Shown piece by piece: positions 15,001 through 24,000 of a stretch of 64,000 bases of DNA. The first letter of the stretch is position 1. Each line of letters begins with the position of its first letter. The DNA is from Escherichia coli O127:H6 str. E2348/69 (GTDB lineage Bacteria > Pseudomonadota > Gammaproteobacteria > Enterobacterales > Enterobacteriaceae), in the NCBI RefSeq assembly GCF_000026545.1, contig NC_011601.1; one strand, given 5' to 3'. The position numbers were made by a program.

Positions 15001-18000
15001 TATCAACTGCCACCCGAATACCGTCAAAACTTGACGTCCAACCAAGAATTATTGAGTTGTAAACTCAACGCAATGATCTGGTTGGTATAAATGTGACATA
15101 TGTCATGAATCGACTAGTTGAGATAGTCAAGATGGGCTTGCTTGACATCATCACCACAACCGGAGCCAACAATGGCAGATTGCGTTACCCAGATTTGATA
15201 AAGGCATTTTAGCCTGACATAACTATGCACTGTATCGTCGCCGTATTCCCGCATCAACAGAGACCACAGCCCGAGAGGGAGACTCCTCTGCGCGAGTGTG
15301 CGGGGATAATCAAAAACGATACACACCGGGGTTTACCGTGTTAACGGAGCGCGGCGTTGTCCCCTCATGGTCGCTGGTCCGGTGCGATGGTGGAAGAAAC
15401 CGGACGATGTGTTACCTCGCAAGCTCTGTTATGTCATGTGTCTGATTTGTGATTTAAGTCGGATAATTGTCATTGCCATTAAGCAGAGGATTGATGACCG
15501 ACAGGGCTGCATTGTTAGAATAAGACTTATTCTTATCTATGCCGGGAATAAAAATGAAAAGAAATCTTCCGTTAATTATTTTGTTGTCTTCTTTGGTTAT
15601 GGGCTGTACGCAACATAAAACAGATATGCCTCGACAGTTGGTTAAGGCATTACCACAATATCCGGCCTATGCCGCGGCAAATTATATAAAGGGACGGGTT
15701 GATGTGAAGTTTGATATTGGTGCTGATGGTACTGTCACCCGAATTGAGTTTATCCGTTCAGAGCCGCACCATCTGTTTGATGAGCAGGTTGTAAAGGCGA
15801 TGGCAAAATGGCGATTTGAGAAGGACAAGCCGCGTAAAGGCGTGAAGAAAACATTTATCTTTAGTCCTTCAGCACCCTGATTATTTTATCAGAAGTTAAT
15901 TATCACTCTGTTGCTATTCAGTACATCCCTGCAGGGTAAAGTCTTGTTTCGCCGGATATGAAGATGAAATATTGTTAGAAGACAGTAGCTACCGGTTCCT
16001 GTAACCGAACGTTCATTTCTCGTTATTTTTCATGCTGGCCGGGCGCAGGTGCTTTGCATCTGTTGCCAGCCTTCTCCTGCAGGCTTCAATAACCCATGCC
16101 GAAAAATTACCCGATCCCTTACGTTCAAGGGCAATATGGATTTGATTAATCATCTGGTTTGGGAAGCTTTATTTTTTGATGACATTGTGTTTTTCCGTGT
16201 TCAGTGCTGCTGATTTGTATTGTCTTAAGATGTCTTTACGTTAAGTTGACACAGATCAATTAATGCATGACTTGGACAAAATTGATTATTTGTCGTGGTT
16301 TTATGGTGTACGTGGGATGTGTGATGGTATTTATATAAATGATAATTATTATCATTTTATTGGGTCCTTTCCGGCGATCCGGCAGGCTACGGGGCGGCGA
16401 CCTCGCGGGTTTTCGCTATTTATGAAAATTTTTAGGGAAAAATCAGATCCGTTCTTCTTTTTTTAACTGTTTGATTATCAATAGAATTTTAAAAATATAA
16501 AAGGATCTGACAAAGGCTGTTTTTGTTAGAAAACGCCATTTTCAGATCCTTTCTGGTTCCCGGGGGAGTGTATGAACGTCAATAAGAAAAAACTGGCCGA
16601 TATTTTTGGCGTTGATGTCAGGACCATCACCGCCTGGCAGAGTCAGGGGTTACCACTAGTTTCTGGTGGAGGGAAAGGGACTGAATCAGTTTTTGATACA
16701 ACTGCTGCCATTCAGTGGTATGCGCAGAGGGAAGCTGATATTGAAAACGAAAAACTCCGTAAAGAGATCGAGGATTTGAGGGCTGCCAGCGAATCAGACC
16801 TTCAGCCCGGCACCATTGATTACGAACGTTACCGACTGACGAAGGCACAGGCCGATGCACAGGAGCTGAAAAATGCTCGTGAGGAAGGCCTTGTCCTCGA
16901 GACGGAGTTATTTACCTACATCTTTCAGCGAGTGGCACAGAATATATCAGGGATCCTTGTCCGTGTCCCTCAGACACTGCAGCGTAAATACCCTGATATA
17001 TCACCCGCACATCTTGATGCTGTGAAAACTGAAATCGCGAAAGCATCCGATGTGGCTTCTGAAGCCGGTGAGAATGTGCGCAGGTGGATTGATGATTTCA
17101 GACGAACTGAGGGCGGCTAATTCTGCAGGAGCGATAGCAACCGGCCTCCTTGCGCTAAAAATTCCTGTCCCTCTGACGACAGTTCAGTGGGCAGATCGAC
17201 ATTATTACCTTCCGAAAGAGTCATCTTACACCCCGGGGCGGTGGGAAACACTGCCGTTTCAGGTTGCCATCATGAACAGCATGGGGAATGACCGGATCCG
17301 CACTGTTAATCTGATTAAATCTGCCCGTGTTGGTTATACAAAGATGTTGCTGGGAGTGGAGGCTTATTTTATTGAGCATAAATCACGCAACAGCCTTCTT
17401 TTCCAGCCCACGGATTCTGCTGCTGAAGATTTTATGAAATCTCATGTGGAACCCACGATCAGGGATGTGCCGGTTTTACTCGATCTTGCACCGTGGTTTG
17501 GGCGTAAACATCGTGATAATACCCTCACGCTGAAACGCTTTTCATCGGGCGTCGGTTTCTGGTGCCTGGGCGGCGCTGCCGCCAAAAACTACCGTGAAAA
17601 ATCCGTGGACGTGGTCTGCTATGACGAACTTTCCTCGTTCGAGCCGGATGTCGAAAAAGAGGGCTCGCCAACCCTGCTGGGGGATAAGCGTATTGAGGGG
17701 GCGGTGTGGCCAAAATCCATTCGCGGCTCGACGCCTAAAATCAAAGGCACCTGCCAGATCGAAAAAGCGGCCAACGAGTCGGCGCATTTCATGCGTTTTT
17801 ATGTGCCCTGCCCGCACTGTGGGGAGGCGCAGTATCTGAAATTTGGCGATGAGTCCACGCCTTTTGGGCTTAAATGGGAGAAGGACAGTCCCGAAAGCGT
17901 TTTCTACCTCTGTGAACATCATGGCTGCGTGATCCATCAGTCTGAGCTTGACCAGAACAACGGGCGGTGGATCTGTGAAAACACGGGCATGTGGACCCGT

Positions 18001-21000: not shown

Positions 21001-24000
21001 GCACAACCGGGCGATGTGCTGCTGTGCTGTTTTGGTTCATCGGTGCCGAATCATGCCGCCATTTACTGTGGTGACGGCGAGCTGCTGCACCATATTCCTG
21101 AACAACTGAGCAAACGAGAGAGGTATACCGACAAATGGCAGCGACGCACACACTCCCTCTGGCGTCACCGGGCATGGCACGCATCTGCCTTTACGGGGAT
21201 TTGCAACGATTTGGCCGCCGCATCGACCTTCGTGTGAAAACGGGGGCTGAAGCCATCCGCGCACTGTCCACACAGGTCCCGGCGTTTCGTCAGAAACTGA
21301 ATGACGGCTGGTATCAGGTGCGCATTGCCGGGCGTGATGCAGGTGAAACCGAATTATCTGCCCGTCTTAATGAGCCGCTGGCAAATGGTGCCGTGATCCA
21401 CATCGTACCGCGCCTGGCGGGGGCTAAAAGTGGCGGCGTATTTCAGGCTGTGCTGGGGGCGGCGCTGATTGCGGTGGCATGGTGGAACCCTGCAGGCTGG
21501 CTGGGTGCTGCGGCTTTATCGGGCATGTATGCGGCAGGAGCCAGTATGATCCTGGGCGGTGTGGCCCAGATGCTGGCACCGAAAGCCCGGACGCCCACAG
21601 CGACCAGCACGGATAACGGTAAGCAGAACACCTATTTCTCGTCACTGGATAACATGGTTGCTCAGGGCAATGTTTTGCCTGTTCTGTACGGTGAAATGCG
21701 CGTGGGGTCGCGGGTGGTTTCTCAGGAGATCAGCACGGCAGACGAAGGTGACGGTGGGCAGGTTGTGGTGATTGGTCGCTGATGCAAAATGTTTTATGTG
21801 AAACCGCCTCCGGGCGGTTTTGTCGTTTATGGAGCGTGAGGAATGGGTAAAGGCAGCAGTAAGGGGCATACCCCGCGCGAAGCGAAGGACAACCTGAAAT
21901 CCACGCAGTTGCTGAGTGTGATTGATGCCATCAGCGAAGGGCCGATTGAAGGTCCGGTGGATGGATTAAAAAGCGTGCTGCTGAACAGTACGCCGGTGCT
22001 GGACAGTGAAGGTAATACCAACATCTCCGGTGTCACGGTGGTGTTCCGGGCCGGTGAGCAGGAGCAGACACCGCCGGAGGGATTTGAATCCTCCGGCTCT
22101 GAGACGGTGCTGGGTACGGAAGTGAAATACGACACGCCGATCACCCGCACCATCACGTCGGCAAACATCGATCGTCTGCGCTTTACTTTCGGTGTGCAGG
22201 CACTGGTGGAAACCACCTCAAAGGGGGACCGGAATCCGTCGGAAGTCCGCCTGCTGGTTCAGATACAGCGTAACGGTGGCTGGGTGACGGAAAAAGACAT
22301 CACCATTAAGGGTAAAACCACCTCGCAGTATCTGGCCTCGGTGGTGGTGGATAACCTGCCGCCGCGCCCGTTTAATATCCGGATGCGCAGGATGACGCCG
22401 GACAGCACCACAGACCAGCTGCAGAACAAAACGCTCTGGTCGTCATACACCGAAATCATCGATGTGAAACAGTGCTACCCGAACACGGCACTGGTCGGCG
22501 TGCAGGTGGACTCGGAGCAGTTCGGCAGCCAGCAGGTGAGCCGTAATTATCATCTGCGCGGGCGTATTCTGCAGGTGCCGTCGAACTATAACCCGCAGAC
22601 GCGGCAATACAGCGGTATCTGGGACGGAACGTTTAAGCCAGCATACAGCAACAACATGGCCTGGTGTCTGTGGGATATGCTGACCCATCCGCGCTACGGC
22701 ATGGGGAAACGTCTTGGTGCGGCGGATGTGGACAAATGGGCGCTGTATGTCATCGGCCAGCATTGCGATCAGTCGGTGCCGGACGGTTTTGGCGGCACGG
22801 AGCCGCGCATCACCTGTAATGCGTACCTGACCACACAGCGTAAGGCGTGGGATGTGCTCAGTGATTTCTGCTCTGCGATGCGCTGTATGCCGGTATGGAA
22901 CGGGCAGACGCTGACGTTCGTGCAGGACCGGCCATCGGATAAGGTGTGGACCTATAACCGCAGTAATGTGGTGATGCCGGATGATGGCGCGCCGTTCCGC
23001 TACAGCTTCAGCGCCCTGAAAGACCGCCATAATGCCGTTGAGGTGAACTGGACTGACCCGGATAACGGCTGGGAGACGGCGACAGAGCTTGTTGAAGATA
23101 CGCAGGCCATTCTCCGTTACGGTCGTAACGTCACGAAGATGGATGCCTTTGGCTGTACCAGCCGGGGGCAGGCGCACCGCGCCGGGCTGTGGCTGATTAA
23201 AACAGAACTGCTGGAAACGCAGACCGTGGACTTCAGCGTGGGTGCCGAAGGGCTTCGCCATGTACCGGGCGATGTCATTGAAATCTGCGATGATGACTAT
23301 GCCGGTATCAGCACCGGTGGTCGTGTGCTGGCGGTGAACAGCCAGACCCGGACGCTGACGCTCGACCGTGAAATCACGCTGCCATCCTCCGGTACCACGC
23401 TGATAAGCCTGGTTGACGGAAGTGGCAATCCGGTCAGCGTGGAGGTTCAGTCCGTCACCGACGGCGTGAAGGTAAAAGTGAGCCGTGTTCCTGACGGTGT
23501 TGCTGAATACAGCGTATGGGGGCTGAAGCTGCCGACGCTGCGCCAGCGACTGTTCCGCTGCGTGAGTATCCGTGAGAACGACGACGGCACGTATGCCATC
23601 ACCGCCGTGCAGCATGTGCCGGAAAAAGAGGCCATCGTGGATAACGGGGCGCACTTTGACGGCGAACAGAGTGGCACGGTGAACGGTGTCACGCCGCCAG
23701 CGGTGCAGCACCTGACTGCCGAAGTCACTGCAGACAGCGGGGAGTATCAGGTGCTGGCTCGATGGGACACGCCGAAGGTGGTGAAGGGCGTGAGCTTCCT
23801 GCTCCGTCTGACCGTGACAGCGGATGACGGCAGTGAGCGGCTGGTCAGCACGGCCCGGACGACGGAAACCACATACCGCTTCACGCAACTGGCGCTGGGG
23901 AACTACAGGCTGACGGTCCGGGCGGTAAATGCGTGGGGGCAGCAGGGCGATCCGGCATCGGTATCGTTCCGGATTGCGGCACCGGCAGCGCCTGTCACTA

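Follow-up and report, generated by a model that had tools for sequence, protein, structure and literature searches.

Deletions of morphogenesis genes are commonplace in lambdoid prophages, and complementation by neighbouring prophages is documented for Escherichia coli O157 Sakai. Defective lambdoid prophages of that strain gave rise to DNase-resistant packaged DNA and were transferred, which has been attributed to complementation and recombination between prophages (Asadulghani et al., 2009, PMC2669165). A comparable case lies in a 64,000-nucleotide stretch of contig NC_011601.1 (hereafter the window) from E. coli O127:H6 str. E2348/69, the reference strain of enteropathogenic E. coli (EPEC). 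Here a lambdoid, lambda-like prophage at the potB/potC boundary carries an intact-looking cos site with its terminase, adaptor and portal genes, and lacks the capsid and tail-shaft genes that normally follow them. Like the Sakai prophages Sp4, Sp9 and Sp15, it is lambdoid, has a morphogenesis defect and resides alongside several related prophages. The Sakai elements differ in that their insertion sequence (IS) insertions or frameshifts are scattered and their packaging was observed; the E2348/69 prophage has one clean 10-kb deletion.

Lambda dgal is a cos-bearing genome without late genes that is packaged when a helper supplies the virion proteins. Lambda dgal and passive prophages use the terminase of the helper; the E2348/69 prophage, in contrast, encodes its own, with a predicted specificity that differs from that of the only compatible co-resident helper, the prophage PP2. 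Among Enterobacteria, phage-inducible chromosomal islands (PICIs), for example EcCICFT073, are described as chromosomal, cos-carrying elements that depend on the capsids and tails of a helper (PMC6739421; PMC9026076). PICIs are small (about 10-15 kb), lack terminase and portal genes and redirect the terminase of the helper, whereas the present element is 40.8 kb long and has genes for a small terminase subunit (TerS), a large subunit (TerL) and a portal. With these genes and a normal lambdoid early region, it is not a satellite of the PICI type. It is best classed as a defective lambdoid prophage, of a kind common in attaching-and-effacing E. coli.

Packaging in helper assays of the Feiss type is initiated only where the specificities of cosB and TerS match (PMC4669245). 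In lambda and phage 21, recognition of cosB by TerS sets the specificity of initiation, and each packages its own DNA more than 1000-fold better despite identical cosQ and cosN sites (PMC4669245). The terminase and cosB of the E2348/69 prophage are compared below both with these two phages and with PP2.

The deletion junction and its distribution

Two intact alleles of the head protease/scaffold gene C, one from an intact prophage in strain Z1323CEC0015 (L003) and one from PP2, were aligned base by base with the window, together with an allele of the tail-tip gene K from a prophage that has the full gene set with some genes flagged as frameshifted (L004). The comparison places the breakpoint between two adjacent nucleotides (Table 1), and neither microhomology nor an IS element was found at the junction. 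Against phage records, homology stops at window position 20999 and is picked up at 21000 or 21001, depending on the reference. The left arm runs to position 25199 of L003 and the right arm starts at position 35418, with 10,218 bp missing between them; relative to the co-resident PP2 the loss amounts to 10,200 bp. Gone are what remained of C/Nu3, all of D, E, FI, FII, Z, U, V, G, T, H, M and L, and the greater part of K. The deletion thus spans the late region from after C codon 70 to K codon 121 (lambda numbering), roughly 4.6-14.6 kb in lambda. The C remnant is a pseudogene according to PGAP and is covered by PHROG 53 (head maturation protease) over residues 1-71 only. No capsid or tail-shaft genes are annotated elsewhere in this prophage.

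C is read in frame 2 and K in frame 1, and the C frame continues for 36 codons into K DNA before a stop at 21109. A preliminary description of this stretch had proposed a C'-'K fusion near position 21000. As a junction in the DNA the fusion is real; as a protein it is not, since the two frames differ and leave only two gene remnants. The same description held that the whole capsid and tail-tube block had gone, which the comparison bears out, and both end points could be placed on lambda. The microhomology that it proposed to look for at these end points is absent. With the head and tail gene block missing, the prophage is not predicted to be an autonomous plaque-forming phage; judged by its gene content it cannot build heads or tail shafts alone and would be defective.

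The 106-aa open reading frame (ORF) across the junction is also matched by PHROG 4759 (function unknown) over residues 1-94 (window 20789-21106), a match that extends past the breakpoint at residue 70. With the junction absent from all phage records, this match is given little weight.

The junction occurs in one of 5,426 complete E. coli genomes, 4,438 of which match one half of it or the other, and in none of 50,697 phage records. A 1-kb probe over the junction had one full-length match at 100% identity, to the reverse strand of the E2348/69 chromosome NZ_CP059840.2. An exact look-up of the 106-aa junction ORF yielded eight contigs. Among them are a second assembly contig of 4.96 Mb with 100% identity along 12.3 kb, a draft assembly of one isolate, and five further contigs, four of them from ENA metagenome assemblies and one from a Logan read-set assembly. 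The flanks of the junction contigs differ from the window at 134 positions (0.1-1.3%), which are clustered and mostly synonymous, and at 132 of these the variant is the allele found at the homologous position of PP2, PP4 or PP6, the other lambdoid prophages of E2348/69 itself. Diverged hosts carrying the deleted form were considered as the source of these contigs and rejected, as nearly all variants are E2348/69's own prophage alleles. The contigs appear instead to be chimeric short-read assemblies of E2348/69-like genomes, or gene-conversion variants in them, and the junction, by these comparisons, seems effectively specific to the E2348/69 clone.

To the left of the junction, 500 bp match dozens of intact prophages at 100% identity; to its right, the 121 bp from 21000 onward match phage records at 100%. 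Both arms thus equal intact alleles, no decay has accumulated, and the event is probably young. Together with the intact att cores and the confinement of the junction to E2348/69-like genomes, this agrees with the preliminary description, which had offered a recent single deletion as one of two explanations.

Table 1. Coordinates of the prophage features within the 64,000-nucleotide window.
Feature	Position	Strand	Evidence and remarks
Q-like late antiterminator (annotated DUF1133)	4935..5477	+	PHROG 753 'anti-termination protein Q-like', E 3e-78
ISEc13 (IS4-like), between Q-like gene and lysis genes	about 11078..12649	+	gap in alignment of window and L003; transposase annotated
Lysis cassette: holin 13394-13600, lysozyme RrrD 13600-14097, Rz-type protein 14094-14531	13394..14531	+	annotated intact
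cosQ, GGGTCCT	16362..16368	+	same sequence and same 23-nt spacing from nick region as annotated phage 21 cosQ
cosN, cohesive-end sequence GGGCGGCGACCT	16392..16403	+	sole exact match in window
cosB	16438..16554	+	R3 CAGATCC at 16444; inverted R2 GGATCTG at 16503; R1 CAGATCC at 16543
Small terminase (Nu1 type), 182 aa	16572-17120	+	Pfam Phage_Nu1; PHROG 57; 100% identical to L003 protein
Large terminase (gpA type), 642 aa	17092-19020	+	Pfam GpA_ATPase, GpA_nuclease; 98.9% to L003, 96.0% to phage 21
gpW head-tail adaptor, 68 aa	19004-19210	+	Pfam gpW; 100% identical to L003 and PP2
Portal (gpB type), 530 aa	19207-20799	+	Pfam Phage_portal_2; 99.1% to phage 21, 98.7% to PP2, 98.5% to L003
Remnant of head protease/scaffold gene C, first 70 codons	20789..20999	+	homology to C stops at 20999
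Deletion junction, blunt	20999..21000	none	0 bp microhomology, no filler; base by base against intact C (L003, PP2) and K (L004)
Tail-tip gene K remnant: final 79 codons, lacking a start codon	21000..21237	+	aligns with lambda K residues 122-199; PGAP pseudogene
Tail assembly protein I, 215 aa	21135..21782	+	Pfam Lambda_tail_I; same protein accession in L004 prophage
Tail-tip host-specificity protein J, 1137 aa	21843..25256	+	Pfam J domain set; 99.7% to PP2 J, 88% to lambda J
lom outer-membrane protein	25326..25925	+	Pfam Ail_Lom; same protein accession in PP2 and PP4
Side tail fibre, two ORFs (437 aa + 89 aa)	25990..27574	+	annotated intact; same accessions in PP2
IS remnant pseudogene between side-fibre genes and tfa	27650-27958		annotation
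Tail fibre assembly gene tfa	27926..28507	+	annotation (intact)
attR core CACCTTCTTATTCA	28758..28771	none	once in K-12 potB/potC empty site

The packaging module and the co-resident prophage PP2

The gene order cosQ-cosN-cosB-Nu1-A-W-B-C is that of phage 21 and lambda. The cosQ and cosN sites are identical to theirs in sequence and in spacing, the 29 nt after cosN are identical to the left end of lambda, and cosB likewise has three R sites and a site for integration host factor (IHF). The IHF-consensus site occupies positions 16464-16476 on the minus strand, between R3 and R2. This cosB is near-identical in the intact prophage L003, has the layout of the annotated phage 21 cosB, and matches the 'complex cosB' arrangement described by Feiss et al. 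(PMC4669245). It would qualify as a complex cosB by its three predicted TerS-binding R repeats, of which R2 is inverted, and by the IHF site between R3 and R2.

In length, Nu1, A, W and the portal agree with their counterparts in phage 21 and in intact prophages; their identities range from 98.5 to 100% to L003 and from 81.9 to 99.1% to phage 21. No internal stops or inactivating changes were found in any of the four. In every comparison made, the region behaves as a predicted lambda/21-type cos packaging module. From the middle of Nu1 into C, DNA identity to phage 21 is 93.8%, and the protein lengths are the same. In contrast to phage 21 and lambda, this prophage has lost C codon 71 through K codon 121, and its CAGATCC R repeats and about the first third of its Nu1 are different. 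Its cosB and Nu1 probably represent a further packaging specificity.

The preliminary description had regarded cos, both terminase subunits, W and the portal as present and intact, and full length, freedom from internal stops and agreement with intact relatives all speak for it; inactivating mutations in terminase or portal, which it named as grounds for abandoning its proposal, were not found. It also listed I, J, lom, the side fibre and the lysis cassette as intact, and so they are annotated, the side fibre as two ORFs. Its word 'kept' for the packaging module fares less well: one deletion provides no statistical evidence for retention. Across Nu1-A-W-B, ten positions are private to the prophage in a comparison with six intact relatives (three nonsynonymous, seven synonymous). 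These sites are too few, and probably represent unsampled pre-existing alleles, so that they offer no test of selection since the deletion. Over a few thousand bases, neutral changes would not have built up in the time likely to have been available.

PP2 is one of three other lambdoid prophages in E2348/69. It is integrated at the att-lambda site between ybhB and ybhC and carries espJ, cif and nleH (nleH1). Its early region includes int, xis, N, an S24-type cI, cro, cII, replication genes and Q, and its phage-21/lambda-type late genes are complete, running from TerS to J, lom and the fibres, with none flagged as a pseudogene. PP2 therefore encodes every protein missing from the deleted prophage (the full C to K). 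The window is 96.0% identical to PP2 over 17174-20999 (A-W-B-C') and 98.2% identical over 21001-27642 (K'-I-J-lom-stf); the two prophages encode the same W, lom and fibre proteins, and their J proteins are 99.7% identical.

Unlike the deleted prophage, PP2 keeps the 10.2-kb C-to-K block, has another early region with its S24-type repressor, and occupies another integration site. It also differs at the points that are expected to determine packaging specificity. Its TerS is unrelated (24% identity) and its cosB repeats are of the ACATGTCCGG type, with cosQ and cosN shared (L020, reverse complement, ~8484-9250). The N-terminus of its TerL is different as well: 43 residues differ between the two proteins, 38 of them within the first 136 and only 5 beyond residue 136. 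The deleted prophage and PP2 thus appear to be a natural pair with different predicted packaging specificity. Helper complementation of the Sakai type requires a co-resident prophage with compatible morphogenesis genes, and PP2 seems, from its annotation, to be one.

The remaining two lambdoid prophages have other head modules. PP4, next to torT, carries nleB2, nleC and nleD, has a head of the ClpP-protease/capsid-fusion type, and shows annotated frameshifts in H and J. PP6 lies in the trp-ompW region, carries nleA, nleH and nleF and combines an HNH/HK97-type head module with lambda-type tail genes. The lom accession shared among the deleted prophage, PP2 and PP4, and the side-fibre accessions shared by the deleted prophage and PP2, together with the 99.7% identity of their J proteins, point to gene conversion among co-resident prophages.

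Probable origin of the deletion and possible helper-dependent packaging

We consider it very probable that the lambdoid prophage at potB/potC lost about 10.2 kb of its late operon in one homology-independent deletion. A single event is indicated by the collinearity of both arms in L003 and in PP2, at distances that correspond to the missing 10,218 and 10,200 bp. Such a deletion inside the late operon, from C codon 70 to K codon 121, would have removed the capsid and tail-shaft genes in one step. The same junction could in principle have been created on paper, by collapsed or mis-joined repeats among prophages that are 96-98% identical, and the short-read junction contigs, with PP2, PP4 and PP6 alleles in their flanks, are visibly chimeric. 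It nevertheless occurs in a closed chromosome, the second 4.96-Mb contig and a third isolate assembly, as well as in five other contigs. There is no repeat at the junction where a mis-join could occur, and both prophage ends lie at one chromosomal site with matching att cores. We give almost no credence to an assembly artefact; this possibility, with structural genes elsewhere in the same prophage, was the other ground on which the preliminary description would have withdrawn its proposal. A join might instead have been made in the cell, between the phage-21-type left arm of one prophage and the tail-tip arm of another phage with an HK97-type head. The closest matches of K'-I (98.8%) do occur in prophages with HK97- or P27-type head genes, and the left arm is closest to phage-21-type prophages. 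Yet both arms are collinear at 96-98% in single phages (L003, PP2), where exactly the missing block separates them, and the element lies between a single attL/attR pair at one locus, where the chromosome shows no rearrangement. Gene conversion among the co-resident prophages explains the mosaic of K-I-J-lom-stf alleles, and an illegitimate join of two prophages is very improbable.

The single deletion is best read as ordinary prophage decay of a known kind, specific to the clone. That cos, Nu1, A, W and the portal look intact follows from the event being young and restricted to this clone; there is no evidence that selection has preserved them, and nothing suggests that the arrangement has been selected or resembles that of a satellite. 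For such a prophage, packaging by a helper or marker rescue is mechanistically plausible, and the sequence neither supports nor refutes it. If the prophage were excised and replicating during induction of PP2, the terminase that it encodes could cleave its cos and fill proheads made by PP2. The missing block could also be regained from PP2 by homologous recombination, for which 3.8 kb and 6.6 kb of 96-98% homology are available. Under the cosB-TerS rule (PMC4669245), and given the different TerS and cosB of PP2, the PP2 terminase should not initiate on this cos, whereas the prophage's own terminase should. Since the two prophages have almost identical portals and C-terminal TerL parts, the resident terminase should also dock on PP2-made proheads. 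The cos-to-cos unit of 40,787 bp corresponds to 95% of the phage 21 genome (42,931 bp). Lambda heads accept about 78-105% of 48.5 kb, and a 40.8-kb unit falls inside that range.

No observation speaks against the deletion as such. Several do limit the rest of this account, some bearing on the age of the deletion and others on whether the remaining genes could act. No sister strain with an undeleted prophage at potB/potC was found in the complete-genome set, where the nearest early regions are ~97% identical. With no close sister of E2348/69 among these genomes, 'recent' is only relative, and the deletion may be common to an unsampled lineage. The repressor is a 135-aa helix-turn-helix (HTH) protein without the S24 self-cleavage domain, in a Qin-like dicB/ydfABC immunity region (L002 7531-7938), so direct SOS induction is not expected. 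The nin region contains inserted DNA and an IS481-family element. Moreover, the lysis and packaging genes are separated from the Q-like gene by ISEc13 and IS200C, which makes expression of the module uncertain.

These considerations bear directly on the proposal that the deleted prophage is a working helper-dependent mobile element with its own packaging specificity (cosB, TerS and the TerL N-terminus), packaged or recombinationally rescued by PP2, and that the retained module is functionally meaningful. We regard this as unlikely. It would be in keeping with the complete cos and intact terminase, with int, xis, O-like and P genes that are annotated intact, and with a unit length close to that of phage 21. 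PP2 shares cosQ and cosN and differs in TerS (24%) and in the R repeats, so that the resident terminase should be the one to initiate, and the C-terminal region of TerL is essentially that of PP2, as is the portal (98.7% identical). The Sakai prophages Sp9, Sp15 and Sp4 were, moreover, packaged despite head or packaging defects (PMC2669165). On the other hand, literature searches gave no induction or packaging data on E2348/69 prophages, and the deleted form is found in one clone only, with no sign of horizontal spread. The IS insertions in the late operon and the non-self-cleaving repressor may prevent expression. The prophage also has W, portal, I, J and fibre genes for which PP2 has equivalents, which fits an arbitrary deletion better than an economised satellite.

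A stricter version casts the prophage as a 'terminase-carrying parasite' of PP2, whose own cosB-specific terminase, once PP2 is induced, packages the 40.8-kb genome into PP2 proheads, so that it spreads without capsid or tail-shaft genes. This would be the reverse of PICIs, which borrow the terminase of the helper, and we think it more doubtful still. Helper packaging of the deleted prophage, if true, would not be new in kind, and clone-specific decay has little significance beyond the biology of the strain. The E2348/69 pair, in which PP2 has a complete phage-21-type set and its partner only the packaging enzymes, with cosN, cosQ and portal type in common, may be modestly useful for the study of packaging specificity in the mobilisation of defective prophages in a pathogen.

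Prophage boundaries, early region and flanking genes

The genome that contains the element has been in print since 2009, and the remnants of C and K are already marked as pseudogenes by PGAP. Iguchi et al. 2009 is the original genome paper of E2348/69. From the numbering of PP2, PP4 and PP6 genes in published tables and the order of locus tags, the prophage is probably the 'PP5' of that description.

At the insertion site, potC lies on the integrase side, outside the window, and potB at 28740-29603. The 14-bp attR core is the exact overlap of homology to both prophage flanks when these are set against the empty K-12 site, and its attL counterpart is outside the window, 12.0 kb to the left of position 1. 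Between them the prophage measures 40,787 bp, of which the right 28.8 kb are within the window; the remainder of the window is ordinary chromosome, running from potA and pepT to ycgB. Both cores are intact. The integrase has Arm-binding and catalytic domains, and is accompanied by an Exc-like excisionase, a DnaT-domain O-like protein and a P protein. The last is short (153 aa) and covers only profile positions 50-161 of its Pfam model. With int, xis, two att cores and replication genes, the prophage is predicted to be capable of excision and replication.

The early region holds repressor, cro, O-like, P and Q-like genes. It is of the Qin type and is combined with a phage-21/lambda-type head module. 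Strain RM14723 (L026) has the same integrase and early region at the same potB/potC att site, joined to a different head module, which points to module swapping, the usual mosaicism at one integration site. The RM14723 head module is of the ClpP-protease/capsid fusion type, and the prophage carries the effector genes espW and espM2.

The nin region contains an inserted pair of genes, for an AAA-ATPase and an HNH endonuclease (window 1-1117, continuing left of the window at L002 1224-4478). The pair is accompanied by a DUF5677 gene and a frameshifted integrase, and the group resembles a small defence-type island. Genes for tRNA-Ile (7238-7313) and tRNA-Arg (7411-7487) lie in the late region, downstream of the Q-like gene and a DNA methyltransferase gene. 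They are followed by iraM and then by a gene for a NanS-type esterase, a layout that resembles the late regions of Stx phages.

Between the Q-like gene and the holin gene, ISEc13 adjoins IS200C (window 11078-13234). IS200C is found at this position in L003 too, whereas ISEc13 is absent from that intact relative; the ISEc13 copy is 99.6% identical to another in the same genome. The same two elements are also adjacent beside PP6 near trpA (L024 14788-16911). The holin has the same protein accession in PP2 and in L003. In this strain, the annotation lists truncated pseudogenes for hflD (high-frequency-of-lysogenization protein), cvrA and hlyE (window 37123-37761; L012 19409-21079 and 30646-30969).

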